Of a DNA stretch of 64,000 nucleotides, positions 47,922-63,991 are shown piece after piece (positions within the stretch are counted from its first letter, which is position 1; each line of letters starts with the position of its first letter). Source of the DNA: Escherichia phage 121Q. The translations under genes were made by a program, and so were the position numbers. The stretch lies in sequence record NC_025447.1, one strand, 5' to 3'. Below the pieces are notes generated by a model, which ran no database searches, was not told where the DNA came from, and saw only the letters and a program-made list of their open reading frames with translations.

Positions 47922-48137
47922 ATGATAACATTTTTCGCAATATATGGATTTGTAGCATTTGTTACATTTATAACCAACTTTCTAGTACTTAATTGGGGTT
48001 GTTTTAAAGATGAAATCATGATTATCATGAATCTCCAAACAGCAGCACTGATGGCTATTATTTGGCCTGTAACGTTAGTATATATTTTTATTTCACTTAC
48101 CCAAGATATTATTAACAAATATAAGAGAAAGAAATAA
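47922..48137 (+). CDS. small membrane protein
   Basis: 71 aa with two hydrophobic stretches; C-terminal KYKRKK. Confidence 0.5.
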   Translation: MITFFAIYGFVAFVTFITNFLVLNWGCFKDEIMIIMNLQTAALMAIIWPVTLVYIFISLTQDIINKYKRKK

Positions 48138-48388: not shown

Positions 48389-48390
48389 TA

Positions 48391-49134
48391 ATGAAACATT
48401 TCTTAGAAGTAACCGTACCTGATGATAAAGATTTATACATTGTAGGTGATTTGCATGGTAATGGTAAACTATGGGATGCTACAGTGAAAGAATTTGGTAT
48501 TACACACAATGATTATGTTTTCAGTGTAGGTGATATTATCGACCGTGGAGAACAAAATTCAAAGCTCCTTTTTGAATTTTTGTTCGGAGAAAATCGTTAC
48601 ATGATTGCAGGTAATCATGAGATGATGTGCGTTGATTCGGAAACACTTCGAGATTGGTATCATTGTTGGATAAGTAATGGTGGTGATAAATTCCTTGATG
48701 AAGTTGGAGGAACAGGCATTCAATTCTTTCGTCAGTACTTAAAAGATCTCCCTATGATTATCCAAATCAATCACCGAGGCTTGAAGATTGGGTTAGTTCA
48801 TGCTGGAGTTCCGTTGGAATATACAACATGGGAACGATTTGTTAATGGGACAAAATCACTTAGTGCTGATATAATTGATAAGTGCTTGTGGGATAGGAAA
48901 ACATTCGATTATTGTAGAACGAATAATACCTATTATGCACCTAAGTTAGATGGAGTGCATTGTGTCTTTAGTGGACATACAGCAGTTACTGATCCACTCA
49001 TTTATGGTAATCGCATTTGGATTGATAGTCAGTTCTTGACGGGTGACTTAACTCTCGCTACTCCACAAAGTGGTGGGATGAGATACTTACGTAAAGAAAA
49101 AGATGAATACTCATTCAATCGTTTCAAAAGGTAA
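48391..49134 (+). CDS. Ser/Thr protein phosphatase (PPP family, lambda-phosphatase-like)
   Basis: GDLHGN, GDIIDRGEQN and AGNHE metallophosphatase motifs; GGAG RBS 5 nt upstream. Confidence 0.8.
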   Translation: MKHFLEVTVPDDKDLYIVGDLHGNGKLWDATVKEFGITHNDYVFSVGDIIDRGEQNSKLLFEFLFGENRYMIAGNHEMMCVDSETLRDWYHCWISNGGDKFLDEVGGTGIQFFRQYLKDLPMIIQINHRGLKIGLVHAGVPLEYTTWERFVNGTKSLSADIIDKCLWDRKTFDYCRTNNTYYAPKLDGVHCVFSGHTAVTDPLIYGNRIWIDSQFLTGDLTLATPQSGGMRYLRKEKDEYSFNRFKR

Positions 49135-49139
49135 TAATT

Positions 49140-49409
49140 ATGCATGATGTAGTTAAAAAATATTTGAATGATAGATATATTATGAAAAAATCTATTAATT
49201 CTATCCTAAAAGATCATGCTAATCAAATACGTGAGATTCTATCAAATAAACTTATTGGTTGTTCAGTTGAGTTCAATTACAAAAAGAATGTAGTGAAGAT
49301 TGGAGTTATTAAACGTGTAGTTGCTGTTTATGACCAAAATGTATATGTTGAAATTGAATATGATGGTAAATTATCACAATTAAGTACTGAAGATTTAACA
49401 TTTTTATAA
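49140..49409 (+). CDS. KYxG-V family small protein
   Basis: SNKLIGCSVEFNY. Confidence 0.5.
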   Translation: MHDVVKKYLNDRYIMKKSINSILKDHANQIREILSNKLIGCSVEFNYKKNVVKIGVIKRVVAVYDQNVYVEIEYDGKLSQLSTEDLTFL

Positions 49410-49419
49410 GGAAATAGAA

Positions 49420-49647
49420 ATGAAAGTAATTCAAGTTATGGTAGAAAAATACCAAACTGAAGATGGTCGTATTTTTGATTCAGCTAAACAAGCTGAACAC
49501 CATGAACGTATTATTTCGGGTGCACGTAAAGTGTGTCCTACATGTAGTGGAACACAACAAGTACCGTCAGAAGATTACCGCAGCTTTTATGCTTGTCCAC
49601 ACTGTGATGGGAAAGGCTATGTAGAAAAACAAGAGGTATGGAAATGA
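49420..49647 (+). CDS. small zinc-finger protein (DnaJ-type CxxCxGxG)
   Basis: CPTCSGTQ and CPHCDGKG motifs. Confidence 0.55.
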   Translation: MKVIQVMVEKYQTEDGRIFDSAKQAEHHERIISGARKVCPTCSGTQQVPSEDYRSFYACPHCDGKGYVEKQEVWK

Positions 49648-50057
49648 AATTGTATTGCTTAACTAATATGTACTGTCAAGGTGTCCAAGCTGGTATTCAA
49701 GCATTCCATGCTGGTGTTAAACTAATTAAAGAATATGAAGGTACTGCTTTCAGTACTATTATTGATGAATGGTACTATGAACACGAAACTATTGTAGTTC
49801 TAAATGCTGGTGGACATGATAAATTAAATTCTTATTATAACAACCTTAGCAAACAGGGGAAAGTTCCGTTTGCCAAGTTCAATGAAGCTGGATTGAATGA
49901 TGCTATTACCTGTGTAGCAGTACTGTGTACGTCTGAAATGATTGAAGACATGGCTGTTATGCGTATGAATCTTCCTGCTGGTGATCAACTAATGCAAGTA
50001 AAATATGGTGCATTGTTTGACACACTAAAAGCAATCAGTACAATGAGGACTATTTGA
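49638..50057 (+). CDS. hypothetical protein
   Basis: 139 aa ORF. Confidence 0.5.
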   Translation: MEMKLYCLTNMYCQGVQAGIQAFHAGVKLIKEYEGTAFSTIIDEWYYEHETIVVLNAGGHDKLNSYYNNLSKQGKVPFAKFNEAGLNDAITCVAVLCTSEMIEDMAVMRMNLPAGDQLMQVKYGALFDTLKAISTMRTI

Positions 50058-51256
50058 TGGATTTTCCAGAGAAGTTATTTGTTGCACGTTCCTATGTAAA
50101 CCACAACCAAGTTGATGGTTTTATTATCGATGCAACAAAATCACATACAAAAGCGTTTGAAACAAAGAAAGAGAGAGCAGAGTACTGGGCAAAGAAGAAC
50201 AATCTTCCATCGTTATATATTGACAACGTTCCAACTACTGGATTTTGTGTAGTTGATAAATTAACAATTCATGCACGAGAAACATATTTCACAATCCGTC
50301 ACCCAGAAGGATTTGAATTTATGATTAGTGCCAAAAACATGAATGATTTAATTATCAATAACGATATAATCAAAGGTGTTTTTGTAGACCCAATGTTTTT
50401 CAACAATAACTTAGAATTAATTAATGGTAAAACAAAAACATTTGCTAAGTTAGTTGAAAAAGAAAATAAAAAAGAACAACAAAAAGAAACTGTAGCAGGT
50501 CTTAAAGTTGGTGATGGTTTCACGTATCTCAAAGAAGATTACTATTACTGCGGTAAAGTACATGCAATTTGTATAAAGAAAACTAAAGAATTTGCATACC
50601 CCGACAAAAGTTCTGTTTATCATTTACTTTTTAACAGTACTCGTGGAACTTATGCATTGAATCAACGTTTGGATAATTACAATCTGGAACCTCGTGCACT
50701 CTTGAATAAGAAAACTACGGCAGATGAAGAAATTAAACTTGCTAATGAATTTTGGCAAAGCTATAGAACAAACAGACATAATCCATTAGGTGAATCTAAC
50801 ATTCCAGTACTGGTACACAATAAATCATTTAAAGCAAAAGACCTAAAAATTAAATATGAAGAAATAAATGTTGATGATCTTATGAATAATGGACGTTTCA
50901 ACGAGAACGTACCATTTATGACTAAAGATAATGAACAATCTTATCGCGTATTTTTTGGTGTAAGTAATAATACAACACGTAGTTATTATGGACGTAGCGG
51001 GGATTATAATATTCATTATAATGATAAATTTGAACGCTTTAGTGCATACCCAGTTCAAATTGATGATAATGGAATTATGTCAATGGATGTTGATATTAAT
51101 GAGCACACATCATTTAGTACATGGAACGGTTATCGTTCACCATTCTTCCCACCAAATGAACGCAAAACATCAAGTTCTCGTTACTACCAAGATAAGCCGT
51201 GTCACGTTCAACTATCAATTAGTAATCCACTTTATATTGGAAAGTATTATCTATAA
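50054..51256 (+). CDS. hypothetical protein (400 aa)
   Basis: Long ORF with ATGA coupling; internal opposite-strand ORFs judged shadows. Confidence 0.55.
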   Translation: MMDFPEKLFVARSYVNHNQVDGFIIDATKSHTKAFETKKERAEYWAKKNNLPSLYIDNVPTTGFCVVDKLTIHARETYFTIRHPEGFEFMISAKNMNDLIINNDIIKGVFVDPMFFNNNLELINGKTKTFAKLVEKENKKEQQKETVAGLKVGDGFTYLKEDYYYCGKVHAICIKKTKEFAYPDKSSVYHLLFNSTRGTYALNQRLDNYNLEPRALLNKKTTADEEIKLANEFWQSYRTNRHNPLGESNIPVLVHNKSFKAKDLKIKYEEINVDDLMNNGRFNENVPFMTKDNEQSYRVFFGVSNNTTRSYYGRSGDYNIHYNDKFERFSAYPVQIDDNGIMSMDVDINEHTSFSTWNGYRSPFFPPNERKTSSSRYYQDKPCHVQLSISNPLYIGKYYL

Positions 51257-51267
51257 AGGAATATACA

Positions 51268-52686
51268 ATGAGCATTTTAGCAATTCTTGAAAGCATTAAA
51301 AATACTAGCAGTACTCTGGGCAAAAAGGCTATTCTTGAACAAAATAAAGATAATGTAACTTTGCAAAAAGTTCTGAAATATACACTCGATCCTAGTATTG
51401 TAAGTGGGTATAAAAAGCTACCAGACGCTGATAACGTGTATCAACATATGACATTGGATGAAGCTATTGATAAACTAGAATGCATCTATAAGCGTGCATT
51501 GACGGGACATACAGGGCGTGATTTCATTGCTTCAGTACTAGGTAGTGTGAGTCCAGATGATGCTGAAGTTCTTCGTAAGATGCTTACAAAGAACTTAGAT
51601 TGTGGTATTCAAGAAAAGAACTGCAATGATGTATTTGGTAAAGGATTTATTAAAGATGAACCATATATGCGTTGTTCTTTGCTTGATAAAAAGACTGTTA
51701 AGAACATCAACTTCAAAGGTCATGGTTATGCTGTCTCCGAGGTCAAGATGGATGGTCAGTACTTAAACCATGTAGTCATTAATGGTGCTCTTACCTCTTC
51801 CTCCCGTAATGGTAAACTATATGACTTCTTAGGTTGTCGTGATGGTGAGATGGCAGGTCTTGCACATCAAATTCAAATGAATGATGAACGTTTTAGTAGT
51901 GGTGTCGTCTTTATGGGTGAAGGTCTAGTACTTGATAATGACGGTGAAACTATTCTTCCACGAACAACTGGTAATGGTATCATTCAGAAGGCTGGTAAAG
52001 ATAGTATTAGTCAGAATGAAGCAATGCGTACTGTATTTGTACTATGGGATGTTGTTCCGTATGATGCATTCTGTGAAGGTACATGGAATGTAAAACGTAA
52101 AGAACGTCGCGAACTTCTTGAATCTGCCATCAATGTATTGGGTAGTGATTTTGTACGTATGGTGAAATACCGTAAGGTTCAAAACATTAAAGAAGCATTT
52201 GAGTACAATAACGAACTCATGGATCAGGGTGAAGAAGGATCAGTACTGAAATGTGAAGATGGTATCTGGAAATCACATACATCTCCTAAGCAGTTGAAAG
52301 TAAAACTAAAAATGCAATTGGATTTGCGTATTGTTGGTTTCAACGAAGGTGAAGGTAAGCGTAAAGGTTCACTTGGTTCTTTACAACTTGAAAGTGCATG
52401 TGGCACACTGAAGGTAAATGTAGGAACAGGTATCCGTGAAAAAGATGCAGAGTGGACATTCAAAACCATTTGGGAACGAATGCAAGAACTAATTGGTAAA
52501 GTCGTTACCGTTGAGTGCAATGAGATTGTAATCGACAAGCGTACAGGTGAACCATCACTATTTTTACCAGTGTTTATTGAATTTAGATTTGACAAAAACA
52601 CTTGTGACGATTATACTCGTATCTTAGAAATTCGTGATAGTGCTGTTGAGGTGTTCTCTAACAGTATTATTGAAGCACTTAGCTAA
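51268..52686 (+). CDS. ATP-dependent DNA ligase (T4 gp30-like)
   Basis: N-terminus ILAILESIKNTSSTLGKKAILEQNKDN parallels T4 ligase; adenylation KxDG motif EVKMDGQ. Confidence 0.85.
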   Translation: MSILAILESIKNTSSTLGKKAILEQNKDNVTLQKVLKYTLDPSIVSGYKKLPDADNVYQHMTLDEAIDKLECIYKRALTGHTGRDFIASVLGSVSPDDAEVLRKMLTKNLDCGIQEKNCNDVFGKGFIKDEPYMRCSLLDKKTVKNINFKGHGYAVSEVKMDGQYLNHVVINGALTSSSRNGKLYDFLGCRDGEMAGLAHQIQMNDERFSSGVVFMGEGLVLDNDGETILPRTTGNGIIQKAGKDSISQNEAMRTVFVLWDVVPYDAFCEGTWNVKRKERRELLESAINVLGSDFVRMVKYRKVQNIKEAFEYNNELMDQGEEGSVLKCEDGIWKSHTSPKQLKVKLKMQLDLRIVGFNEGEGKRKGSLGSLQLESACGTLKVNVGTGIREKDAEWTFKTIWERMQELIGKVVTVECNEIVIDKRTGEPSLFLPVFIEFRFDKNTCDDYTRILEIRDSAVEVFSNSIIEALS

Positions 52687-52705
52687 TCATTTATTGGAGG
52701 TAATT

Positions 52706-53497
52706 ATGAAATTTGTTGTAACATCTGACGTACACGGTGGAACTGATTACCTCCATAGCGGTGATTACAGTGATGTAGTACTGATCATTGCTGGGGACTT
52801 CGATGAAGTTAAACGCAGTCGTTACCGTACTGGTATCGAATCACTGTGTAAGCAGTTCAAAAATGTAGTACTGGTTCCAGGTAATCACGAATATTATGGT
52901 TCCAATATCATCAAAACGCATAAAGTACTATCCAATATGCAGGATGAGATTCCTAATTTTATCTTTTTGCAAAACAAATTTGTATGGCTGGATGGAGTAC
53001 TGCTTGTTGGTAGTACTCTGTGGACAGACTTCGATAAAGGTAATTCTTTGACGAAGTTTGATGCTCGTCAGAAGATGAACGATTACAAACATATCCGTCA
53101 TGGAACAACATCAGAGCCTTGGCGTAAAAAACTGACACCTGATGATACTGAGTTTATGCATCACAAAGATAAACAATTTATCAAAAATTCTATTGACACA
53201 GTTCGCTTTATGCATGATAATGATTTCAAGGTCATCGTGATTACTCATCACGCACCAAGTTATCAAAGTGTTTCACCAAAATATAAAAATGATTCACTGA
53301 ATGGTTGTTACTGTTCCGATATGGATCAGTACATTGAAGATTTGGGTGCTGATGTTTGGATTCATGGTCATGTTCATAGTAGCTTTGACTACCACATTGG
53401 TAAGACACGTATCATTTGTAATCCACGAGGCTATGAATCGTATAGTGGATCTTGTGAGAATTTTGATTACAATCCTAAATTTGTATTTGAAATTTAA
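52706..53497 (+). CDS. calcineurin-like metallophosphoesterase
   Basis: GGAGG RBS; DVHGG, GDF and PGNHEYY motifs. Confidence 0.7.
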   Translation: MKFVVTSDVHGGTDYLHSGDYSDVVLIIAGDFDEVKRSRYRTGIESLCKQFKNVVLVPGNHEYYGSNIIKTHKVLSNMQDEIPNFIFLQNKFVWLDGVLLVGSTLWTDFDKGNSLTKFDARQKMNDYKHIRHGTTSEPWRKKLTPDDTEFMHHKDKQFIKNSIDTVRFMHDNDFKVIVITHHAPSYQSVSPKYKNDSLNGCYCSDMDQYIEDLGADVWIHGHVHSSFDYHIGKTRIICNPRGYESYSGSCENFDYNPKFVFEI

Positions 53498-53509
53498 TGT
53501 GAGGATACA

Positions 53510-53893
53510 GTGTCATTGATTTATTTTGAACTACCAGAATATACCAATTATCCAAGCCGAGTTATTTGCTCAGTTTATAGTAATGCATATCATCACTTGT
53601 TAGTGAATAGTAATAAAGCTGTGCATTATTATCGAAATAAAGAACCACGTACATTAAAGAATCGTTATGGTTTTGACCCAACTAACACTGAAGTTGAACT
53701 CTGTGATCTGTTTGGGGAAGTAATGGTGGTGTTGAAACGAGATATTCATCTTTTCCATACATACAAACTTAATCAGTACTTTATGGAAACACTGTCTATA
53801 CGTTCCCATGCTCCGATGATTAAAGTTGATTTGAATTATGTTGATGATAAATTGAAATATGATTTCATAAATTCACTTGTTTATTTGGAGTAA
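53510..53893 (+). CDS. hypothetical protein
   Basis: 127 aa ORF. Confidence 0.45.
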   Translation: MSLIYFELPEYTNYPSRVICSVYSNAYHHLLVNSNKAVHYYRNKEPRTLKNRYGFDPTNTEVELCDLFGEVMVVLKRDIHLFHTYKLNQYFMETLSIRSHAPMIKVDLNYVDDKLKYDFINSLVYLE

Positions 53894-53894
53894 T

Positions 53895-54299
53895 ATGAAT
53901 ATACGTTCAGTACGAATATTTTCATTTGTTGATATGAATGAAAAACACTCTTATGTGTTTGAAACTGTCAATAAGTTAAATCCTCATACGGCAAAAATGA
54001 TTGAAACCATGAAGATCTTGAGTTTTCATATAGAAGTTTACTATCTTCATGACGATTCTGTTTTTGTATATGATGATGGATGGTATGACGGTGTGTTTTA
54101 TGATGACATTAGCACTACTGCTGATTACTACTTTCTAGTGAGTAACCCACTATTCAGTACTAAAACTTTGTTTGACATTACCGATACAAGCGTGTATGAT
54201 ACAAGTCATGTTGAGTTACTTAAGTTTGATCCAGTATTATTCAACAAAGAAACGGCGTATTGGATGACTGATTTCTTTTCAAATATTCCAGTAAAATAG
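53895..54299 (+). CDS. hypothetical protein
   Basis: ATG at 53895 after GGAG. Confidence 0.45.
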   Translation: MNIRSVRIFSFVDMNEKHSYVFETVNKLNPHTAKMIETMKILSFHIEVYYLHDDSVFVYDDGWYDGVFYDDISTTADYYFLVSNPLFSTKTLFDITDTSVYDTSHVELLKFDPVLFNKETAYWMTDFFSNIPVK

Positions 54300-54301
54300 T
54301 T

Positions 54302-54329
54302 TGGACATTTTAAATCTTAGTGATATAAT
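54302..54329 (+). promoter_or_regulatory. sigma70-like promoter with extended -10
   Basis: TTGGACA, 16 nt, gTGaTATAAT upstream of clpP RBS. Confidence 0.5.
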
Positions 54330-54363
54330 ACTCACTACAACGAAATAATAGAGGAAATTAACA

Positions 54364-55059
54364 ATGGTTGAACAATTCATGTTTGGTGGTTATGCTAATG
54401 GCGAAGTACGTAACATTTCTATTCCTTACGTAGTTGAGAAAGTTAATGGTTCAGAACGTACATATGATCTAGCATCTCGTATGATGCAAGACCGTATCAT
54501 TTTCCTTGATACTGATTTCAATGATCAAATGGCACATATCATCAAACAACAATTGGTGTGGTTAGACTCACAAGGTGATTCCCCTATTACATTCTACATT
54601 AGTTCACCAGGTGGTTCAGTACACGCAGGTTTGGGTATTGCAGACGTTGCTAAGTCTTGTATTTCCCCAATCCGCACTGTAGTTATGGGTTATGCGGCAT
54701 CAATGGGTTGCTATACACAATCTGTTATTGGAACTAAAGGTTTCCGTTTAGGTGGTAAACGTTCATACTTCATGTGTCACCAAGTAAGTTCTGGTACACA
54801 AGGTCTAATTACAGACCAGAAGATTTCCCTACAACATTCTGATGCACTGAATACATTGTTGACCAAAGAAATTGCAGAAGCAGTAGGCGTATCACATGAA
54901 CAATTACTAAAAGATGCTGACCGCGATTTGTGGTTAAATGCAGAAGAAGCACTTGAATATGGTGAACATGGTTTCATTGATGGTATTATTCTTGGACCAC
55001 GTAACGAAGAAGGCAAGTACTTAGTTAAGCGTCGCGGCGGTGTGGAAGAGTGGGTGTAA
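54364..55059 (+). CDS. clpP: ClpP-family serine protease subunit
   Basis: DRIIFLD, ISSPGGSV and MGYAASMG (active-site Ser context); His in FMCHQ. Confidence 0.8.
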   Translation: MVEQFMFGGYANGEVRNISIPYVVEKVNGSERTYDLASRMMQDRIIFLDTDFNDQMAHIIKQQLVWLDSQGDSPITFYISSPGGSVHAGLGIADVAKSCISPIRTVVMGYAASMGCYTQSVIGTKGFRLGGKRSYFMCHQVSSGTQGLITDQKISLQHSDALNTLLTKEIAEAVGVSHEQLLKDADRDLWLNAEEALEYGEHGFIDGIILGPRNEEGKYLVKRRGGVEEWV

Positions 55060-55107
55060 GATAGATTTTGATGCCTCAATATGGGGCATCATCTTTGTGG
55101 AGATTAT

Positions 55108-55398
55108 ATGAAAGTACTAGTACGTAATAATACGGAAGTAGCAAATGTATTAGAAGATTCCGATTTTATTAATGTTGCGTTCGATCAAATTAGTGCAGTA
55201 GCACTTGAGTTAAAAAATGTGGATGAATCTGAGCGTGTACTAAATGGTTTTGCAATTGTACTTGAATTAATGAAAGAAGTACTAATTAAAAAGAACATTA
55301 ATCCAGTTGATGCGGTTCAACATGCAGAAGCTGTGCGTAAAGAACACGGTACATTCTCTGACAAAAAATACATTCAAACTGATGAGGTAAAAGAATAA
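55108..55398 (+). CDS. hypothetical small protein
   Basis: ATG at 55108 after GGAG; alternative upstream start at 55081. Confidence 0.45.
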   Translation: MKVLVRNNTEVANVLEDSDFINVAFDQISAVALELKNVDESERVLNGFAIVLELMKEVLIKKNINPVDAVQHAEAVRKEHGTFSDKKYIQTDEVKE

Positions 55399-55399
55399 T

Positions 55400-55846
55400 A
55401 TGTCCAATGCACAATATAAAGATGGTTATGACGCATACAAAGCAAAAGTAGTTCTAAGTGCTGAACAGCTAAAAATGCAGCATCCATTATATCGTCAGGG
55501 CTATCGTGCAGCACAAGCAGAAGCAATGAAGAAAAATAATGTAACTTTCCCTACTACGCTATATGATATTCCTAAACGTCCACACATTTTTAAAGCTGAA
55601 TGGACTGATATTATGGCAGCGACAAAGCGTCCACGTTTTGCTAAATTACACACCGATGAAGGTCGCTGGTTGCTAATGGGGATTATGAAAGCAGTTGAGA
55701 ATCAATCTCATAAGATTGTTCGTTATAAAGATGTTGTTGCTATGGTTGATAAAGCATTTGACCTTGTACTTCAATATGGTTATGATGAAGGTGTACTAAC
55801 TGTTTCTGATTGTGAAAAATATCAGTACACCCCATATCAAAAATAA
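55400..55846 (+). CDS. hypothetical protein
   Basis: 148 aa ORF. Confidence 0.5.
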   Translation: MSNAQYKDGYDAYKAKVVLSAEQLKMQHPLYRQGYRAAQAEAMKKNNVTFPTTLYDIPKRPHIFKAEWTDIMAATKRPRFAKLHTDEGRWLLMGIMKAVENQSHKIVRYKDVVAMVDKAFDLVLQYGYDEGVLTVSDCEKYQYTPYQK

Positions 55847-55856
55847 TATTACAAAT

Positions 55857-55884
55857 AGGAATCCAGTACTGGATTCCTCTTTTT
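55857..55884 (+). terminator. rho-independent terminator
   Basis: Perfect 22-bp palindrome AGGAATCCAGTACTGGATTCCT followed by CTTTTT. Confidence 0.65.
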
Positions 55885-55964
55885 ATTGCTGTATATCAAT
55901 TTTCATCGATCAAAAAATGATCTATATAAGCTAAATACCCAAGGAATCATTGTTACTAGGGTAG

Positions 55965-56519
55965 GTGAATATGCAGCAATATAATTTAACTGAAGAACAA
56001 AGTGATATTTTTTATCATCATATGTTTTTAATTGATGAGTTTGCTTTGAAAATTAATTCTGAAGCAATTGATATATTGAAGAAATGGTATTCATGTTATA
56101 ATAAAAACAAAAAGTGGTATTGGTTTAATAGAAATTTAAAGTCATTTTTAAAAACAATAACACAAGTTGATAGTGTAGAAATGATACATAGTTCAATTGG
56201 ATATAGTTATTTGACTAAACACAATAATACTATGATGTTATCCGGTTTTAAAGTTGAAAGAATTTCAAAGCTTACAGGTTTATCATTAAAAACAATTTTA
56301 TATGATATAGAAAAGATTTGGAAAACTATAGAATTCATGCACAAAAATATGTCATTCATATATAGAAATTATGATATATTCACTGAGGTACGTCAATATC
56401 ATAATAAACCTTATGTATTGAATGAAAAGTACTATAATCATATGGAAGTTTGTTCTAAACTCGTTGATGATTGGAATCTAGAGGGACATAATGAAATACA
56501 CACACCTAAGTATAGATGA
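55965..56519 (+). CDS. hypothetical protein
   Basis: 184 aa ORF, very AT-rich. Confidence 0.45.
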   Translation: MNMQQYNLTEEQSDIFYHHMFLIDEFALKINSEAIDILKKWYSCYNKNKKWYWFNRNLKSFLKTITQVDSVEMIHSSIGYSYLTKHNNTMMLSGFKVERISKLTGLSLKTILYDIEKIWKTIEFMHKNMSFIYRNYDIFTEVRQYHNKPYVLNEKYYNHMEVCSKLVDDWNLEGHNEIHTPKYR

Positions 56520-57015
56520 TACTAATATCTGGTTAGATAACATAATCAAGACATTAGAATTAATTAAACTTACATTACAAAAAACTACTGATATTGAAAT
56601 TAATATTAAACAAGAAATATTAAACTATTATCATAGAAACAAATATAGCACGTTTATCTCTAAATTAATTTATGGATTATATGATATTGAAGATATTTGC
56701 ATCGGTTACAGTACTGGTATTTGCTTCACTGTTAATGGTTTAAAAAATGATTTAAATTTCAGACTTTCCGATGAAGAGCAAGATTTTCGTAGATTTTGTG
56801 ATAATATTATGGATACAGACAAAATTACATTTGTGATTGAATTAAATCAAACATGGTCTACATATGCAGATAAACCATTTGAAATTAATGAAACAGATGT
56901 GTTAAACTATATTCGAGTTATGAAAATTCATGATTTGTGTAAAAACGCATTGTTAAGTATTGGAGCTTATAATGAAACATACGACTTGGTTGAAGATAGC
57001 AGAAGTAGTTGCTGA
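56491..57015 (+). CDS. hypothetical protein
   Basis: 174 aa ORF. Confidence 0.45.
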   Translation: MKYTHLSIDDTNIWLDNIIKTLELIKLTLQKTTDIEINIKQEILNYYHRNKYSTFISKLIYGLYDIEDICIGYSTGICFTVNGLKNDLNFRLSDEEQDFRRFCDNIMDTDKITFVIELNQTWSTYADKPFEINETDVLNYIRVMKIHDLCKNALLSIGAYNETYDLVEDSRSSC

Positions 57016-57451
57016 GGAAAGTAAATGTATTTCACAAAAAGTTGGTTGTGTTATTGTTAAAAATAATAGAGTATTGAGTACTGGATACAATGGAACGCCA
57101 TCTAAGCAGCCAAACTGTTGTGATGTAAATCAACATTTAGTGAACGATGGTCGTTTTCAAGACTGGGTTGATGATGCAGCAAAACATGAACATCATGAGT
57201 GGAGTAATATTCATGAGATCCATGCAGAGATGAACGCTTTACTGTATAGTTCTCCTACTGAACGCCAAGGAGCAACTCTTTACACAACTCTACAACCATG
57301 CTATACTTGTTCTAAGTTAATCGCAGGTAGTGGGATTACCCGTGTAATTTATCACAAAAGTTATCCACGAACACCACCTGAAGCGATTAAAGTACTGGAA
57401 GATGCTGGGATTATTGTTAACTGCATTTATGACAAGGGTATGAATCAATGA
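56972..57451 (+). CDS. cd: dCMP deaminase
   Basis: Zinc-binding HAEMNAL and PCYTCSKLI motifs; GGAG RBS before ATG at 56972. Confidence 0.85.
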   Translation: MKHTTWLKIAEVVAEESKCISQKVGCVIVKNNRVLSTGYNGTPSKQPNCCDVNQHLVNDGRFQDWVDDAAKHEHHEWSNIHEIHAEMNALLYSSPTERQGATLYTTLQPCYTCSKLIAGSGITRVIYHKSYPRTPPEAIKVLEDAGIIVNCIYDKGMNQ

Positions 57452-57702
57452 CATTTATGATTGTTGGATTTCTATCAATATTAGTATTATTTTTTATAAC
57501 AGTAATGTTTGTTATTGATGATAATGACATTTCTCAACGAAACTATGAAGTGCGTTTTTCTGCACAAAACAACAAGTACTACATTGTAAACTGTATACAC
57601 CGTAGTGAGAAAAGGGTAACAAGTAGATTTGGATTTACCATTTATTATAAAGACCGAGTAGAAGCTGACATGATTTGTCAGAAGCTTAATACTGTAGAAT
57701 AA
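57448..57702 (+). CDS. small membrane protein
   Basis: 84 aa; N-terminal hydrophobic stretch MIVGFLSILVLFFITVMFVI. Confidence 0.5.
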   Translation: MTFMIVGFLSILVLFFITVMFVIDDNDISQRNYEVRFSAQNNKYYIVNCIHRSEKRVTSRFGFTIYYKDRVEADMICQKLNTVE

Positions 57703-57731
57703 AAAAAAAGGAGCCACAAGGCTCCTTTTTT
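57701..57731. terminator. bidirectional rho-independent terminator
   Basis: A9-GGAGCC-acaa-GGCTCC-T6 between convergent genes. Confidence 0.7.
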
Positions 57732-57732
57732 G

Positions 57733-58110
57733 TTAACCAGGGATGTTACAATAATACAAATCCCAAGGGTGATATTTCATTTCTCCAGTACTCAATTTAA
57801 TTTTATGAAACTGGAATGATTCGGCAAATGCACTATCATCAATCTTAATACAAAAAGTATTTTTTGCTAAAGTTGGTGCAATCTCTAGTGCAGTTTTAGT
57901 TGCATCTAATCTGATTTTATCTTTATCAAAACTTGTTATAGTTACAAAACGATAAACATTAAAATCAGTGTCGATAAGATCGTAAACACAACTAGAACGT
58001 TGATTAAAGATGTTCAAGTTATATTTCAATTCACCGTTTATATTAGCGGCGGTTACACAAAAGCCGCCGATATTGAATGGTAATTTACCTTGTGCTGCTA
58101 TAGCTTTCAT
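57733..58110 (-). CDS. hypothetical protein (antisense island, gene 2)
   Basis: 125 aa minus-strand ORF with AGAGGAAA RBS; N-terminus QGKLPFNIGGFCVTAANINGE is paralogous to the upstream small ORF. Confidence 0.55.
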   Translation of the reverse strand: MKAIAAQGKLPFNIGGFCVTAANINGELKYNLNIFNQRSSCVYDLIDTDFNVYRFVTITSFDKDKIRLDATKTALEIAPTLAKNTFCIKIDDSAFAESFQFHKIKLSTGEMKYHPWDLYYCNIPG

Positions 58111-58238
58111 ATTTTATTTCCTCTTATTAATAAACAACTACTTTTACAGATTGTTGTACCTTTTATATTTACACCGTCAACTAAATATCCACCTAAAGTG
58201 AATGGAAATTGGTCTTGTCCTGCGATTGGTTCCCCCAT
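58107..58238 (-). CDS. small protein (43 aa), paralog of the N-terminus of the downstream gene
   Basis: Hand translation MGEPIAGQDQFPFTLGGYLVDGVNIKGTT...; AAGGAG RBS 8 nt upstream; stop overlaps next ATG. Confidence 0.4.
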   Translation of the reverse strand: MGEPIAGQDQFPFTLGGYLVDGVNIKGTTICKSSCLLIRGNKI

Positions 58239-58357
58239 TAAGGGCACTCCTTATAAAAAAGCTTTACATTTGGTATGGGTTTGTGATAGAATCTTCACAG
58301 TGATTGTACTAAGGGGATTATCAGATGAGGGAAATTTGAGTTAAGTACAGAAAAAGT

Positions 58358-58386
58358 TTGACTTAAGTGTTTAAGTACTATATTAT
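58358..58386 (+). promoter_or_regulatory. sigma70-like promoter
   Basis: TTGACT, 17 nt, TATTAT upstream of the 58420 gene. Confidence 0.5.
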
Positions 58387-58419
58387 TTATATCTTCCTAA
58401 CCAAAATTAAGGATTTGTT

Positions 58420-59028
58420 ATGAAAAGACTATGGCTTGAGGTAGTACAAGCAGTAATGCTTCTGATGTTGATAAATTTTCCAGCCAGTGCTGGTGTTGAA
58501 AGTAAAAATGTGATAAAGTACAATCCTGAAACACGTAATGTATATTTCATCTCAGATATTACGGATGGGTCACTAAAGCGTATGATGGAGTTGTATGATA
58601 AAGAACACTATGATACCATTACCATCACATCGCCAGGTGGTGATTTTGATGCTGGGATTAAAATGGCAAACTTCGTTAGAGACAATGGTATAAATTTAAT
58701 TGTTTCTAGGTATTGCAACTCAGCATGTACTGTGGTATTCTTCAGTGTAGCTTTTGAAAAGCGATACATGATAAATCGCTCAGTACTGGGACTTCATAAC
58801 ATTTCTATTAAAAGTAATGTTAAAGACGGTGATAATTCTTTTGTATCAGTTAGGCAGCTATCAACTTTTACTGAAGAAATGGCAACTAAAGTAGGTTTTC
58901 TATTTACACTATATTCTGCAAATGGAATTCCACCAGACGTTCTATATAAAGTTAGCCGTTCGCGTGGTGAAGATGTTGTAATATTAACAAAACCAGAACT
59001 GGTTTTTTACGGTTCAGTCAAACAATAA
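58420..59028 (+). CDS. secreted ClpP/crotonase-fold-like protein (putative periplasmic protease-like)
   Basis: N-terminal signal-peptide-like LLMLINFPASAG; TITSPGGDFDAG resembles the ClpP-fold S-P-G-G loop. Confidence 0.4.
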   Translation: MKRLWLEVVQAVMLLMLINFPASAGVESKNVIKYNPETRNVYFISDITDGSLKRMMELYDKEHYDTITITSPGGDFDAGIKMANFVRDNGINLIVSRYCNSACTVVFFSVAFEKRYMINRSVLGLHNISIKSNVKDGDNSFVSVRQLSTFTEEMATKVGFLFTLYSANGIPPDVLYKVSRSRGEDVVILTKPELVFYGSVKQ

Positions 59029-59098
59029 AAATAATTAAAATAACAGGATGATTATGATGTACTTCCTTTGTTATTAATTATATTGAGATTATATAACT

Positions 59099-59359
59099 AT
59101 GACAAACATCCAAAATTTGACATCTATTATTTTTTATGCTACAGTAGTGATGTATATTACTGTACTTTTCCTAACAGTTTTCATTTACAAAGATTACAAA
59201 AATGGCTTTATTGATAACACAACAATGAAGTTCAATTCAAAGTTTGAAGCAATAATTTATTATGTTCTGGCAACATCATATTTGGTGTGTCTAATGTTAT
59301 TAGGTACATTGATTTATATTTTATATACAACTTTATTTGCAATTGGAGCTATTTTATGA
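59099..59359 (+). CDS. small membrane protein
   Basis: 86 aa with two long hydrophobic segments. Confidence 0.5.
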   Translation: MTNIQNLTSIIFYATVVMYITVLFLTVFIYKDYKNGFIDNTTMKFNSKFEAIIYYVLATSYLVCLMLLGTLIYILYTTLFAIGAIL

Positions 59360-59952
59360 CATGTATCATTGCACACACTGATGGTGTAACTTCTTTTATT
59401 GCAGGGGACAAACTGGGAAGTAACGGGTTCACAAAGTCCGTTCAAACTGAGCCTAAAGTATTTGAGAAAGAATTCATTAAAATCAATGATGATGCTGGTT
59501 TGACCCGTACAAAAGAAATTATGGCGATTGGTTACACCACATCATTCCGTATGGGTCAACTTCTTACTTACAGTTTGAATCTACCACAGCAAGATGCAAA
59601 TGAGACGTTTCCACAGTACTTAGTACTGAAAGTTATTCCTATTATTCGTCAAATGTTCAAAGAGGAATGGGGTTCTCGTGATCCTTCACAAGAAGTAGGT
59701 GGTGGACAGTTCATCATTCTTCACAATCATACAATTTATGAAGTTCAAGAAGATTTTTCAGTTCTTCAACCGAAAACACGAATCACCGCCGTAGGTAGCG
59801 GAACATATCATGCTATTGCAGCAATGCAAGCATATATTGAAGTTGAAAATGAATCAAAAGTGCCACTACATGAACGCATCAAATCAATTTTTAAAATTGT
59901 CAGTGATAATGTAACTAGTGTAAGTGCCGAGTTTGATGTTTTAAAGTATTAA
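59356..59952 (+). CDS. putative Ntn-hydrolase / HslV-like protein
   Basis: GGAG RBS; N-terminus MTCIIAHTDGVTSFIAGDKLGSNG resembles the HslV/proteasome-beta N-terminal Thr plus AGD pattern; weak. Confidence 0.35.
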   Translation: MTCIIAHTDGVTSFIAGDKLGSNGFTKSVQTEPKVFEKEFIKINDDAGLTRTKEIMAIGYTTSFRMGQLLTYSLNLPQQDANETFPQYLVLKVIPIIRQMFKEEWGSRDPSQEVGGGQFIILHNHTIYEVQEDFSVLQPKTRITAVGSGTYHAIAAMQAYIEVENESKVPLHERIKSIFKIVSDNVTSVSAEFDVLKY

Positions 59953-59970
59953 AATTATAAGAGAGAATAG

Positions 59971-60165
59971 ATGATGGCATACACAATTTATGAATGGGTT
60001 TTGAGTTTTTTTATAGTTTTTTCTATTGTTGTAATTTATAACAATGCTAAATGCTTATACAGGGACTTGAAATCCAATGGTTATCACAAAGATAATAATT
60101 TTATGTATGCCTATCATATTGGAATAATTCTGTTATTATCAATATATTTAATTGGTTTTTCATAA
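59971..60165 (+). CDS. small membrane protein
   Basis: 64 aa, two hydrophobic helices. Confidence 0.45.
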   Translation: MMAYTIYEWVLSFFIVFSIVVIYNNAKCLYRDLKSNGYHKDNNFMYAYHIGIILLLSIYLIGFS

Positions 60166-60174
60166 GGATCGAAT

Positions 60175-60927
60175 ATGATATCAGAAAAATTTATAAGTAA
60201 TGAAGGTAAAAAAAGATTACTGATTATATCTGGTGCAGGACTTTCAGTCGAAAGTGGGATGGAACCTTTTCGATTTGATGATGGTTTGTGGGATACATTT
60301 AAAATTAATGATGTATGTAACATTGCTAGTTTAACTACAAAATATCATGTTGTTCATTCTTTCTATAATACATTGCGTGTAAAATTGGGACAATGCGAAC
60401 CAAATGCAATGCATTATTTTATAAAATCGTTAGAAGAACAATATGGTGATTGCTTCCTTCATATGACTTCTAACATGGACGATCTTTATACTCGTATTGG
60501 TGGTCATGAGCTTAAACTTCATGGAAACTTGTGCGAAGTTATTGAAAATTATAGTATCAATTCTGATGATTATAATGTTATTAACTGCGGATACGAACCA
60601 TACATACCAAAACATGATGTTTTTGCTAAACCAAATGTGGTAATGATTGGAGAATATCATCGTTATGTTGATGGTATACGCTTACCAATTTACGAAGAAC
60701 GAAATAATGTGTTGAAATCTCTTAATGAAAATGATACAGTTATTGTAATTGGTAGTAGCGATACAGTACTAGTATGGTCGAGATTAGCAGCAGCATTACC
60801 ATGTTATAGTGTTAATGTTAACATTCGTAAAAATGATAATGATTTTTTGTTTAATGAAAAAGTTATCAAGCCAGCAACCAAAGCAATACCACATCTAGAG
60901 ACTATAATTAAGGAACGTATGAAATGA
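60175..60927 (+). CDS. Sir2-family protein (NAD-dependent deacylase / ADP-ribosyltransferase fold)
   Basis: GAGLSVESGMEPFR, TSNMDDLY, catalytic HG (KLHGNL), KPNVVMIGE and VIGSS motifs in sirtuin order. Confidence 0.8.
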   Translation: MISEKFISNEGKKRLLIISGAGLSVESGMEPFRFDDGLWDTFKINDVCNIASLTTKYHVVHSFYNTLRVKLGQCEPNAMHYFIKSLEEQYGDCFLHMTSNMDDLYTRIGGHELKLHGNLCEVIENYSINSDDYNVINCGYEPYIPKHDVFAKPNVVMIGEYHRYVDGIRLPIYEERNNVLKSLNENDTVIVIGSSDTVLVWSRLAAALPCYSVNVNIRKNDNDFLFNEKVIKPATKAIPHLETIIKERMK

Positions 60928-61475
60928 GTGTTAAAGAAGTTCCCTTTGGTGAATATGGCTCACGTGCAAATTTTGTATTTTGTTATTTCTTTGCAAGAAA
61001 ATGTAACCCTTACAAAAACTATGAGTTGAATGATATACCAGAAGTAAATTTAGTTTTACTACAATTACGATGGGATGGTCTTCTTGGTGGATGTGGTGGA
61101 ACCGTAGAAAGTACTGATATCTCACTAGAAGATGCGTTGCGTCGTGAAGTTCAAGAAGAAATGGATTACAATATTTTTGTTTCCCATCTTCGACCACTCA
61201 AAACTTTTGAAATTTACCCAGGTGCAAACAGTCATAGTTTTAGCTATGAAGTAAGCTATGACGAGTTGAAACACATTAGAGATGGATACACTAATGCTAA
61301 ACATGCGAGTGCTGAAGTTGCTGGTGTAAATTTATGTCATATTTCTCGTTATTCTAAGGGACAAAATCGAGAAGCGGGATATAATAATCTTATGACACAG
61401 AACTTCATCGGTACAGCAAAACAAGAATTGGAGTATCTGGTTCAAAAAGAAAACTTACTAATTAGTTATCTATAG
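60924..61475 (+). CDS. Nudix hydrolase-like protein
   Basis: GGTVESTDISLEDALRREVQEEMD approximates the Nudix box (compare MutT GGKIEMGETPEQAVVRELQEEVG) with a one-residue insertion. Confidence 0.55.
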   Translation: MSVKEVPFGEYGSRANFVFCYFFARKCNPYKNYELNDIPEVNLVLLQLRWDGLLGGCGGTVESTDISLEDALRREVQEEMDYNIFVSHLRPLKTFEIYPGANSHSFSYEVSYDELKHIRDGYTNAKHASAEVAGVNLCHISRYSKGQNREAGYNNLMTQNFIGTAKQELEYLVQKENLLISYL

Positions 61476-61484
61476 GAGTTTAAC

Positions 61485-61805
61485 ATGTCTTACGCAATGT
61501 TTTTGGATGATATTCGTGATGCAAATCTATATTATCCAAACCAAGATATGGTGGTATGTCGTGACTTTAAAAGTGCATGTGAATATGTTATTGAAAATGG
61601 AATTCCAGCATTTGTATCATTCGACCATGACTTGGGTGATGTGAGCGAAGACGAAAAGACTGGATATTCTTTTGCTAAGTTTCTTATTGATTATATGTTT
61701 GATAATAATATTAAAGAACCGTTTGAGTACTTTGTTCACAGTAGTAATCCTGTTGGTAAAATTAATATTGAAACATACTTAAACAATGGATTTAACGCAT
61801 TATGA
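61485..61805 (+). CDS. hypothetical protein with acidic FLDDIRD / SFDHDLGD motifs
   Basis: 106 aa; GGAG RBS; motif spacing reminiscent of receiver-like domains, unverified. Confidence 0.45.
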   Translation: MSYAMFLDDIRDANLYYPNQDMVVCRDFKSACEYVIENGIPAFVSFDHDLGDVSEDEKTGYSFAKFLIDYMFDNNIKEPFEYFVHSSNPVGKINIETYLNNGFNAL

Positions 61806-62104
61806 TTCAAACACACATCAAAAGTCTTATTTGTACTGTTCTGTTAGGTGCAGGAGTTCTTTGGTTCGGACAGTATCACGAGAACACTAAGCGTACCAAC
61901 ATTCACTACAATACCGCAGAAGTTGTTAGTTTAGGACAATGTAGCGAGTCCAAATGTTCATTCATGTATAAAACCCAAAGTGGTGAAGTACGTAATGGAC
62001 TATCAAGAGAACCAGTTTCAATTGGTCAACTTGTTTACCAGGAGTGCTGGGAAGAAAAGGTTCGAGGTTCACGTTGCTATGTTGAATACGAACCAAATAT
62101 GTAA
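61802..62104 (+). CDS. hypothetical protein with N-terminal TM segment
   Basis: 100 aa; hydrophobic LICTVLLGAGVLWF. Confidence 0.45.
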   Translation: MIQTHIKSLICTVLLGAGVLWFGQYHENTKRTNIHYNTAEVVSLGQCSESKCSFMYKTQSGEVRNGLSREPVSIGQLVYQECWEEKVRGSRCYVEYEPNM

Positions 62105-62164
62105 TAATCCGAGTCAATAACATTAGTCGAGTACAAGGATGTACTCATAACTCAAGGATGTTTT

Positions 62165-63604
62165 ATGAAAAAATATACAATTGACACAAACGTACTACTA
62201 TCTGACCCTAATGCATCTATTGCTTTTGATGGTGCTGCAATCATTCTACCATTTACAGTACTGGAAGAATTAGATTCGATTAAGAGTCGTAATGTAGATG
62301 TTTCACGCGATGCTCGTGTTGCTATTCGTAACATTGAAGCAATTATTGCAGATGCATCACATGACGAGATTAGTAGTACTGGTGTTAATATTGCTGATGT
62401 TCATACCAATATGAATCCTGATAGCAAATTGTTTGTTATTACAAACGAAGAAGCTGAGGCACTAATTCGTACTAAAGGTACAGAAGAGAAAGTTCAAACC
62501 CTTCTCAAAAGTACTGTACCTGATGATAAAATCATTCTGGTAGCTTTAGCAACAGAATCAGTACTGGTAACTCGTGATATCAACATGCGTATCAAAGCAC
62601 TAAGTTATGGTGTCGAGGTACAAGATTATCGCCATGATATTGTTATTGGTGATAGTGATTTGATTCACATTGGTCAACACCATCTGGAAATCAATTTTTG
62701 GGAAGTATACAGCAACTTAACCAATACTAATATTCAATCCGAACAAGTTGGTCGTCGTTTGTATCATTACATTTCTAAAAGCTTGATTGAACATCTGCTT
62801 CCACAAAATCTATGCATCGGTGATTATCTATATGATGATGCTGACGTATTATTTGTGTACGAAGGACAATCAGCAATTGAGGAAGATGATGGAACACTAA
62901 CACCAGAAGATATTTTGGTATTCCAAGACATTGGACAATCAGTGTCTTTACGTGCTAAAGTATGGGATATTAAAGCAAAGAATATCCAACAAGCACTCGC
63001 CATCAACAGTATTCTCGATCCTGATGTACATCTAACAGTACTGCTAGGTTCTGCTGGTACTGGTAAAACACTAATTACAATTGCTACTGCATTAGAATTA
63101 GTACTGGAAAAACGTAAATACGACCGAATCATCTTCTCTAAAACTCAAGACTCACAGTTTGAAGATATTGGTTTCTTGCCAGGTTCAGAAGCAGAAAAAG
63201 TGATTCCATTCTGTGGAGCCGCGATTGATGCGTTAGAGTTTCTTCATAAAGATGATGCCAATCCACAAGGTAGTATTGAAGAGATTATGAAACGTAATGT
63301 TATTCAATTTAAAGCACTAAACTTTGTACGTGGACGTTCATTCACCAACACTATTCTAGTAGTTGATGAATTCCAAAACATTACACCTGCACAAGCAAAA
63401 ACCATCTTGACACGAGCAGGGTTAAACTGTAAAGTAGTAATTATGGGTAACTTGAGTCAGATTGACAGTAAGTTTATTAGTCCTGTTAACAGTGGTTTGA
63501 CATATGTAACTGAGAAGTTTAAAGACTGGGCAGGTTGTCGTGTCATCGAACTAGAAGGTGTTGTTCGTTCACCACTGGCTGAATTTGCTGAAGAAAATAT
63601 GTAA
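62165..63604 (+). CDS. phoH: PhoH-like ATPase with N-terminal PIN domain
   Basis: PIN-like YTIDTNVLLSDPNA; Walker A LGSAGTGKT; Walker B VVDEFQN. Confidence 0.8.
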   Translation: MKKYTIDTNVLLSDPNASIAFDGAAIILPFTVLEELDSIKSRNVDVSRDARVAIRNIEAIIADASHDEISSTGVNIADVHTNMNPDSKLFVITNEEAEALIRTKGTEEKVQTLLKSTVPDDKIILVALATESVLVTRDINMRIKALSYGVEVQDYRHDIVIGDSDLIHIGQHHLEINFWEVYSNLTNTNIQSEQVGRRLYHYISKSLIEHLLPQNLCIGDYLYDDADVLFVYEGQSAIEEDDGTLTPEDILVFQDIGQSVSLRAKVWDIKAKNIQQALAINSILDPDVHLTVLLGSAGTGKTLITIATALELVLEKRKYDRIIFSKTQDSQFEDIGFLPGSEAEKVIPFCGAAIDALEFLHKDDANPQGSIEEIMKRNVIQFKALNFVRGRSFTNTILVVDEFQNITPAQAKTILTRAGLNCKVVIMGNLSQIDSKFISPVNSGLTYVTEKFKDWAGCRVIELEGVVRSPLAEFAEENM

Positions 63605-63861: not shown

Positions 63862-63965
63862 TTCATTTGAAGCAATATTGTGGAGTTCTTAATAAATACT
63901 TTTATAAGAATAATAATACTTTTTATTAAATTAAAAAGAACTCCATGTGTTATTTCAGTTTTTCG

Positions 63966-63991
63966 TCCCTGTCTTTTGGCAGGGATTTTTT
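63966..63991 (+). terminator. rho-independent terminator
   Basis: TCCCTG-tcttttgg-CAGGGA hairpin followed by TTTTTT. Confidence 0.6.

Follow-up and report, generated by a model that had tools for sequence, protein, structure and literature searches.

Gene layout of the locus

The sequence considered here, referred to as the window, is a stretch of 64,000 nucleotides of Escherichia phage 121Q (NC_025447.1), which is AT-rich (~32% GC) and carries nearly all of its coding sequence on the + strand. Positions 60175-61805 of the window hold three genes, which encode a sirtuin (Sir2), a Nudix hydrolase of the NUDT16/X29 type and a small protein with a cREC domain. These are the core of a five-gene operon-like block, which is completed by a small membrane protein and a PIN-PhoH protein (Table 1). 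The module is genuine and conserved, its genes are functionally coupled, and it is already known: the gene set stands annotated in deposited genomes, and computational predictions on it have been published (PMC9503650, PMC7824862). The region 59900-62200 aligns over its full length, at 97.7-98.3% identity, with ~20 deposited genomes of Asteriusvirus-type jumbo coliphages (310-384 kb), SHEFM2K, PBECO4, G17, phAPEC6 and slurp01 being among them. In all, ~30 deposited phage genomes that are nearly identical carry annotations of these genes, and several of the aligned records label the trio as 'Sir2 NAD-dependent deacetylase', 'nudix hydrolase' and 'hypothetical protein'.

The reading frames of the trio coincide exactly, in position and strand, with those drawn by a first-pass annotation of the window; the motifs which it had listed for the three proteins are all in place, and the Pfam and PHROGs scores lie far beyond chance. 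An AAGGA precedes the Sir2 start codon at 60175, while the Sir2 stop and the Nudix start share the tetranucleotide ATGA at 60924-60927, in agreement with the coupling proposed for this pair. The Nudix stop codon TAG (61473-61475) is part of a TAGGAG, 9 nt upstream of the cREC ATG at 61485. The first-pass annotation was right in treating the trio as coupled, but it drew the module too short, missing a second ATGA overlap between the cREC gene and the following one (61802-61805), the membrane protein encoded there, whose hydrophobic 19-mer begins at residue 5, and PIN-PhoH. The genes for Sir2, Nudix, cREC and PIN-PhoH are all contiguous at 60175-63604. A consensus terminator scan of the + strand returned no hairpin between 60175 and 63965, and the hairpin listed in Table 1, the first on this strand past the block, is a possible operon end judging from its pattern.

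Table 1. Features of the five-gene block and of the remainder of the window
Feature	Position	Strand	Size and matches
Sir2 sirtuin, phage-specific CobB-like zinc-less clade	60175-60927	+	250 aa; Pfam SIR2, phrog_2162
NUDT16/X29-like Nudix hydrolase	60924-61475	+	183 aa; Pfam Nudt16-like, NUDIX
cREC (cyclic-phosphate-processing receiver) domain protein	61485-61805	+	106 aa; PF20274
Conserved protein with one N-terminal hydrophobic helix	61802-62104	+	100 aa; phrog_14661 'membrane protein', 3.9e-44
PIN-PhoH (PhoH2-type) predicted RNA nuclease/helicase	62165-63604	+	Pfam PIN_4 7.8e-20, PhoH 7.3e-44
Terminator-like hairpin	63965-63986	+	Consensus scan: 9-bp stem then T run; pattern match only
T4 Rnl1-like RNA ligase	41797-42939		
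Pnkp kinase-phosphatase	44036-44968		
Calcineurin-like phosphoesterase, first of two	48376-49134		
'Hydrolase' phrog_3668	49638-50057		139 aa; weak, sub-threshold Pth2 (peptidyl-tRNA hydrolase) likeness, E 3.9e-4, 20.5 bits vs cutoff 126
ATP-dependent DNA ligase	51268-52686		
Calcineurin-like phosphoesterase, second of two	52634-53497		
ClpP	54364-55059		4e-41; upstream of module
'Protease', weakly ClpP-like	58420-59028		Upstream of module
HslV-family peptidase	59287-59952		Upstream of module

Conservation and coupling of the block

Seventy-three loci carrying a sirtuin of this clade were surveyed; at 65% identity they form 18 lineages. The neighbouring open reading frames (ORFs) were clustered without prior labels. 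Four of the lineages are Rak2-like jumbo phages, namely the group of the window and PBECO4, RaK2, the CBB/GAP32/BF/Yen9 group and one metagenomic lineage, with Sir2 proteins sharing 43-63% identity with that of the window. All four have Sir2, Nudix, cREC, the 100-aa membrane protein and PIN-PhoH in this order, the only difference being a 122-aa ORF which separates Sir2 and Nudix in the metagenomic lineage. The membrane protein fills the same slot throughout (cluster 14), and PIN-PhoH is directly downstream in each case. In the CBB/GAP32/BF/Yen9 lineage, moreover, one polypeptide of ~300 aa comprises both Nudix and cREC (L008:6787-7692, L002:6787-7695).

Across the whole survey, cREC is found at most three genes from Sir2 in 6 of the 18 lineages, which represent two phage groups that are unrelated and differ in gene order. 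In Vequintavirinae-type phages, Sir2 is accompanied by an RNA ligase, cREC, a P-loop kinase, a phosphoesterase and a DNA ligase. In T5-like phages, an HAD 'Swiss-army-knife RNA repair' phosphatase (HAD_SAK) occupies the +1 position of Sir2 at every locus (24/24), a slot that is filled by cREC elsewhere. The recurrent partners of the sirtuin clade are RNA-end healing and sealing enzymes. The survey independently yields the three configurations published by Iyer, Burroughs, Anantharaman & Aravind in 2022 (PMC9503650). Their configuration 1, the Serratia phage BF type, has a gene order identical to that of the window, as do L002 and L008, and its function is a prediction. The window departs from it in that Nudix and cREC are separate genes and in that a 2H phosphoesterase, Nampt and NMNAT-Nudix are absent.

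Neighbourhood in a phage genome may also reflect independent auxiliary genes, inherited together in a syntenic early region and sharing no pathway. Phages do pack unrelated small genes with stop-start overlaps, and ATGA junctions are common in the window, as between the Dam-like and HxGH genes discussed below. Furthermore, the four jumbo lineages have a common ancestry, so that their synteny alone is not independent evidence. However, this explanation does not sit well with the Nudix and cREC domains being joined in one protein, nor with the recurrence of the Sir2-cREC pairing in the unrelated Vequintavirinae with other partners and in another order. Nor does it account for the distribution of the NUDT16-like Nudix, which in phages is nearly confined to Rak2-like jumbo phages (69 of 73 phage-collection records) and there always adjoins Sir2. 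We regard it as highly improbable. The overlapping start and stop codons, the order conserved in four jumbo lineages and the Nudix::cREC fusion are the evidence that the trio is functionally coupled.

A zinc-less sirtuin related to CobB

The assignment of the first protein to the sirtuins, already made in the first-pass annotation, is firmly upheld. The protein matches Pfam SIR2 (PF02146) with an E-value of 4.6e-20 (72.8 bits vs a cutoff of 24) over profile positions 1-178 of 180, and phrog_2162 at 1e-77. Its motifs are G20-A-G-L-S-V-E-S-G-M-E-P-F-R33, T98-S-N-M-D-D-L104, H116-G117 and K152-P-N-V-V-M-I-G-E160, and of these G20-R33, T98-L104 and H116 align with the corresponding residues of CobB (phmmer, MAFFT), H116 with the catalytic His. 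H116, N100 and D103 are invariant across the phage clade, and the nicotinamide adenine dinucleotide (NAD) pocket and the catalytic His are intact. The closest sequences in PDB are those of E. coli CobB (6rxj/1s5p, ~1e-21), followed by archaeal Sir2Af and SIRT5. An AlphaFold (AF2) model built from 25 homologues, with a predicted local distance difference test (pLDDT) score of 89.6, returned CobB as the top Foldseek match, with template modelling (TM) scores of 0.76/0.84, again followed by Sir2Af and SIRT5.

With CobB and the class III sirtuins (SIRT5, Sir2Af) the phage protein therefore shares the Rossmann NAD pocket, the catalytic His, the motifs TxNxDxL and (K/R)PxVVxFGE and, in the alignment with CobB, the class-III FYN..R segment, at about 27-31% identity. 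It differs from CobB in lacking the four-cysteine zinc ribbon of the small domain, a typical feature of deacylase sirtuins. Where CobB has C...CxCC, the phage clade has no conserved Cys, the two cysteines of the window protein in this region (C120, C138) being non-conserved, and the site is also missing in a Vibrio phage Sir2 described in an earlier in-silico study (PMC5107563). The GTSxxVxP segment of CobB is likewise altered, reading G(S/C)S(D/N)xV(L/I)..W in the phage clade, with a nearly invariant Trp. Residues C48, H61, G139-Y140 and W201 are conserved specifically in this clade, and the sirtuins of jumbo phages carry an insert at residues 162-171. The clade comprises 979 phage records, from T5-like, rV5-like, Mydovirus, Phapecoctavirus, KVP40-like and Rak2-like phages.

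Two narrower identifications were rejected. True orthology with CobB was discarded because of the missing zinc ribbon and of scores of 85.7 and 92.7 bits against the NCBIfam equivalogs NF040867 and NF001755, whose cutoffs are 320 and 318. A defence-type Sir2 (ThsA, DSR1/2, SIR2-HerA, SIR2-pAgo) was discarded since the proteins closest in fold are deacylase sirtuins, the top 50 Foldseek PDB matches of the model including no Sir2 structure of the defence type, and since no family of the PADLOC models is matched at E <= 0.01.

The likeness to CobB brings in a second alternative to the pathway favoured below, close to the readings of the first-pass annotation and of Skliros et al. 2016. A CobB-like lysine deacylase would reprogramme host or phage proteins (e.g. 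acetyl-CoA synthetase), the Nudix enzyme would hydrolyse the resulting O-acyl-ADP-ribose (OAADPr) or ADP-ribose, and cREC would be an accessory phosphatase. Nudix enzymes are known OAADPr hydrolases, and CobB is the best match of the phage protein both in sequence and in fold, with the catalytic His, the NAD pocket and the class-III segment all kept. The nicotinamide-recycling genes of sister jumbo phages, described below, would serve such an enzyme too. Moreover, this role has been proposed for the Sir2 of a schizoT4-like Vibrio phage, the transcript of which was found at 20 min post infection (PMC5107563). On the other side, the zinc-ribbon cysteines are missing throughout the clade, the strand which helps to clamp the acyl peptide (GTSxxVxP) is replaced, and the equivalog scores are far too low. 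The recurrent RNA ligase, kinase, HAD_SAK, 2H, cREC and PIN-PhoH neighbours are left unexplained, and so is the fusion of an RNA-associated NUDT16-type Nudix to cREC. We therefore hold this reading to be unlikely, while keeping it under serious consideration.

A side observation concerns RaK2, whose sirtuin orthologue (L011:6998-7738) has SGNGLSMDSGFDLYD in place of SGAGLSxESGIxxFR, with the remainder of the block kept. As its NAD-binding motif is degenerate, this protein may be inactive.

A NUDT16-type Nudix hydrolase

The second protein matches Pfam Nudt16-like (PF22327) at 1.3e-18 (67.9 bits vs a cutoff of 27), Pfam NUDIX at 7e-7 (29.7 bits vs 21.1) and PHROGs at 8e-91. The near-canonical Nudix box noted in the first-pass annotation is E69-D-A-L-R-R-E-V-Q-E-E79, in which REVQEE fits REUxEE, and the spacing G56-x5-E62-x11-R74 is that of the NUDT16/X29 type (Gx5Ex11REUxEE). 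R74, E75, E78 and E79 are invariant among the homologues, and the top PDB sequences are Xenopus X29 (1u20, 2.8e-12) and human NUDT16 (1e-11). By profile and motif, then, the protein is a true NUDT16-type Nudix with the catalytic REUxEE glutamates, and nothing in these comparisons placed it outside the Nudix fold. With NUDT16 and X29, the latter acting in U8 snoRNA decapping, it has in common the Nudt16-like family, the spacing and a C-terminal helix region. It differs from them in its low identity (about 25-30%), in having xDY in place of xGU and in its operonic tie to a sirtuin and cREC. Relatives of NUDT16 process RNA-linked and protein-linked nucleoside diphosphate-X (NDP-X) substrates.

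The family is a small one. When 1.84 billion representatives were searched exhaustively with HMMER, 482 proteins reached E <= 1e-3, and 163 of them E <= 1e-10. The fusions of longer members to cREC, HD_4, Ham1 or a cytidylyltransferase-like domain (CTP_transf) number one or two proteins per partner and are not decisive, and the neighbourhood of the Nudix gene in Aeromonas phage LAh_9 was uninformative.

cREC, a receiver-fold protein and predicted enzyme

The third protein had been described in the first-pass annotation as a small acidic protein. Acidic it is, with a pI of 4.22 and 18 D/E vs 7 K/R, but its family was missed: it matches Pfam cREC_REC (PF20274) at 1.8e-22 (80.3 bits vs a cutoff of 27) and PHROGs at 3e-30. 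A PDB sequence search gave no match. The motifs F6-L-D-D-I-R-D12 and S45-F-D-H-D-L-G-D52 contain several of the positions which are invariant in a 46-sequence alignment, namely D8, D9, R11, P41, F46, D47, H48, D49, L50, G60, S86, N88, G91 and I95. The AlphaFold model (pLDDT 96.6) has the receiver fold in a truncated, four-stranded form, with D8/D9 following strand 1, D47 following strand 3 and S86 following strand 4. CheY-type receivers have their metal-binding pair, phospho-acceptor Asp and Thr/Ser, respectively, at the corresponding places, and the phospho-Asp pocket of cREC is complete. Profile match, receiver fold and conserved Asp pocket, together with the lack of a histidine-kinase partner, place the protein in the cREC family.

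In comparison with CheY-like REC domains, cREC has only four strands and lacks the strand-5 Lys, a histidine kinase partner and an output domain. Conversely, it has the additional invariant residues R11, H48, D49 and N88, and is predicted to be an enzyme and not a switch. In the model, D47-x-D49 may mimic HAD motif I, with its nucleophile and general acid, and this arrangement would therefore suit a hydrolase better than a switch. The family was named by the Aravind group, whose papers call it experimentally uncharacterised and predict that it processes cyclic phosphates or ADP-ribose (ADPr) derivatives as a phosphoesterase (PMC7824862, PMC9503650).

At least 544 confirmed matches to the family are present in viral contigs. 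Among scattered occurrences, a standalone bacterial cREC gene directly follows a calcineurin-like phosphoesterase in a Malaciobacter mytili contig (L075:3313-4321), and in two phage contigs (L077, L078) cREC is near an AAA_28 P-loop protein, ClpS and HSP20.

NAD salvage and possible counter-defence genes near the block

In three of the four jumbo lineages (RaK2, CBB/GAP32/BF/Yen9 and the metagenomic one), NMNAT-Nudix and Nampt genes precede Sir2 at a distance of 3-9 genes. In Mydovirus-type phages, a PRPP synthase and Nampt are near the Sir2-cREC pair, and a 2H phosphoesterase is at position -1 or -2 of Sir2 in two jumbo lineages alone. The CBB copy of the latter (L008:5273-5719) matches the anti-CBASS family Acb1 in Pfam at 1e-15, which hints, at the level of sequence, that part of the relatives' neighbourhood is counter-defence. 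Phage NAD salvage as known from KVP40 (NadV/NatV), or in the form of Nampt and NMNAT-Nudix, is thus found upstream of the Sir2 block in relatives and is absent from the 121Q window, whose 64 kb contain no homologue of Nampt or NMNAT-Nudix. Tblastn with Nampt matched all other Rak2-like genera, and no record of the PBECO4/121Q group was among the Rak2-like orthologues. When positions 53000-60175 are compared with the loci of relatives (L002, L008, L011, L012), protease genes are seen to replace the NAD-salvage and 2H genes upstream of Sir2, and the lineage of the window appears to have lost the salvage genes.

These associations lend themselves to another alternative, in which Nudix and cREC, with the 2H/Acb1-like enzyme in relatives, would destroy immune nucleotides or toxic NAD products and return the pieces to NAD resynthesis, the sirtuin being a regulated NAD-consuming partner. 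The envisaged targets are isomers of cyclic ADP-ribose (cADPR), ADPr-1''-P, ADPr>p and cyclic oligonucleotides. The salvage genes upstream of the block in most jumbo lineages and near Sir2-cREC in Mydovirus-type phages agree with this, as do the Acb1 match and the flanks of cREC in other environmental phages, where the few genes that recur include PRPP synthase (2) and NAPRTase (1). The degradation of soluble ADPr derivatives by phage Nudix and cREC proteins is also a proposal of the Aravind papers (PMC7824862, PMC9503650). However, the lineage of the window retains the block intact while having no Nampt, NMNAT-Nudix or 2H gene in 64 kb, and a sirtuin which consumes NAD is an odd partner for NAD conservation. 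In addition, Sir2, Nudix and cREC match no PADLOC family and have no known anti-defence homology, and the signal-degrading activity is only predicted. On balance this alternative appears rather improbable. The NAD-salvage linkage of the sister phages fits any NAD-consuming enzyme equally, and for this reason both this alternative and the deacylase reading are kept alive.

A predicted pathway of NAD-dependent RNA repair

The reading tentatively favoured here, to which we give somewhat less than an even chance, is that the sirtuin removes 2'-phosphates from RNA, or ADP-ribosylates an RNA-linked phosphate, while Nudix and cREC either break down the ADP-ribose cyclic phosphate that results or serve to prepare the RNA end. 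An NAD-dependent RNA repair with a KptA/Tpt1-like sirtuin was predicted by Iyer et al. 2022 (PMC9503650, section 3.7.3), and this published model is preferred because the partners of the sirtuin clade are RNA-end healing enzymes and because the chemistries of sirtuins and Tpt1 run parallel. The observations beneath it are that the domains are identified and their catalytic residues intact, that the genes are physically coupled and syntenic, that Nudix and cREC occur fused, and that RNA-healing genes adjoin the sirtuin in other phage groups. Furthermore, a T4-type Rnl1 and Pnkp are encoded in the same phage, 16-18 kb upstream of the module. The first-pass annotation had proposed an NAD/ADP-ribose module; the coupling of its genes stands, but the context of the clade points more to RNA-end healing and the clean-up of by-products than to a generic manipulation of host NAD pools.

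From this evidence we infer what the enzymes act on, in which sequence they do so and what role the module has, as follows. The zinc-less, CobB-derived sirtuin would bind NAD+, expel nicotinamide and ADP-ribosylate an oxygen nucleophile on a macromolecule, most likely a phosphate of damaged RNA, that is, the 2'-PO4 left once a 2',3'-cyclic end has been opened. A sirtuin scaffold would thereby perform the reaction of KptA/Tpt1, as Iyer et al. 2022 proposed. Nudix would then split the pyrophosphate of ADP-ribose into AMP and a phosphoribosyl fragment, from which cREC would open or remove the remaining (cyclic) phosphate by means of its receiver-type Asp pocket in a DxD arrangement. Alternatively, cREC might act earlier, on the 2',3'-cyclic end of the RNA. 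PIN-PhoH would contribute RNA unwinding and cleavage to the same pathway.

The comparison with KptA/Tpt1 concerns the proposed mechanism only, as the fold is unrelated to that of sirtuins. Formally, the two chemistries appear parallel, an oxygen attacking C1'' of NAD, followed by O2'' attack to give a 1'',2''-cyclic species. KptA/Tpt1 together with 2H enzymes would hence resemble the block in an NAD+-dependent ADP-ribosyl transfer to phosphate with a cyclic product, which for the sirtuin is a proposal. Both are found in an RNA-repair setting in phages, and their phage distributions appear complementary among the matches listed, where phages encoding KptA (98 records) and phages of the Sir2 clade (979 records) show no overlap. 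Tblastn of E. coli KptA against the window found nothing better than E 4. The neighbourhoods of KptA were also considered as a parallel to the Sir2 block, and were dropped as uninformative.

Several points weigh against RNA repair. The nearest relatives of the sirtuin in sequence and structure, CobB, Sir2Af and SIRT5, are bona fide protein deacylases. Repair by T4-type Pnkp and Rnl1 requires no 2'-phosphotransferase. The 64 kb of the window contain no homologue of the CBB 2H gene, so the step which creates the 2'-PO4 has no enzyme unless cREC performs it. In three jumbo phages, the neighbours of KptA are hypothetical proteins only, with no cREC or Nudix parallel. Moreover, the flanks of cREC in 30 other lineages of viral contigs, from a survey of 31 lineages and 118 flanking proteins, are heterogeneous and have no dominant partner, the recurring ones being PolyA_pol (2), PRPP synthase (2) and NAPRTase (1), with RNA-repair neighbours rare. 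Early regions of phages cluster nucleic-acid enzymes in general, and adjacency is weaker evidence there than in bacterial operons. Lastly, literature searches turned up no experimental work on phage sirtuins or cREC beyond two analyses of the Aravind laboratory and one in-silico and transcript study.

A more far-reaching version of the RNA-repair reading would make the block the consuming half of an NAD cycle run by the phage. The zinc-less sirtuin would act as an RNA 2'-phosphotransferase, the Nampt and NMNAT of sister phages would regenerate NAD+, and cREC would represent a new class of cyclic phosphodiesterase or phosphatase with an Asp nucleophile on a receiver fold (DxD, HAD-like). Taken as a whole, this is quite improbable.

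Should the predicted chemistry prove right, RNA phosphate ends would for the first time have been shown to be the target of a sirtuin, and the receiver-fold cREC family would have gained its first assigned activity. Both predictions bear on the survival of large phages facing host defences which cleave RNA and deplete NAD, and the module offers a clean test of a sirtuin working on RNA phosphate ends and of an enzymatic receiver domain.

Other features of the window

The first-pass annotation had suggested that an HxGH nucleotidyltransferase (34503-35036) might belong to the same theme. As a member of the module this gene was rejected, being 25 kb away and coupled through an ATGA overlap to a Dam-like N6-adenine methyltransferase (33985-34506); the overlap suggests that these two genes form a coupled pair of their own. 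The protein contains the motifs GRINPVHRGH and SSTQMRN and matches PHROG 'cytidyltransferase' families. Its similarity to HIGH-type nucleotidyltransferases is at the family level only, with sub-threshold scores in Pfam and NCBIfam and an E-value of 0.008 against the NMNAT of CBB, and a PDB sequence search gave no match.

A cluster of nucleic-acid end-processing genes spans 41797-53497 and includes the ligases, the kinase-phosphatase and the phosphoesterases of Table 1. The phrog_3668 'hydrolase' encoded there has a homologue in Vibrio phage K566. A tRNA scan of the whole window (1-64000) returned no tRNA genes, and no Rfam family reached its gathering threshold. Finally, the window contains paralogous arrays of small genes, consisting of an 8-member family of about 113-141 aa (771-17442), a 6-member family of about 146-167 aa (10957-20229) and a 3-member family (36783-37663).

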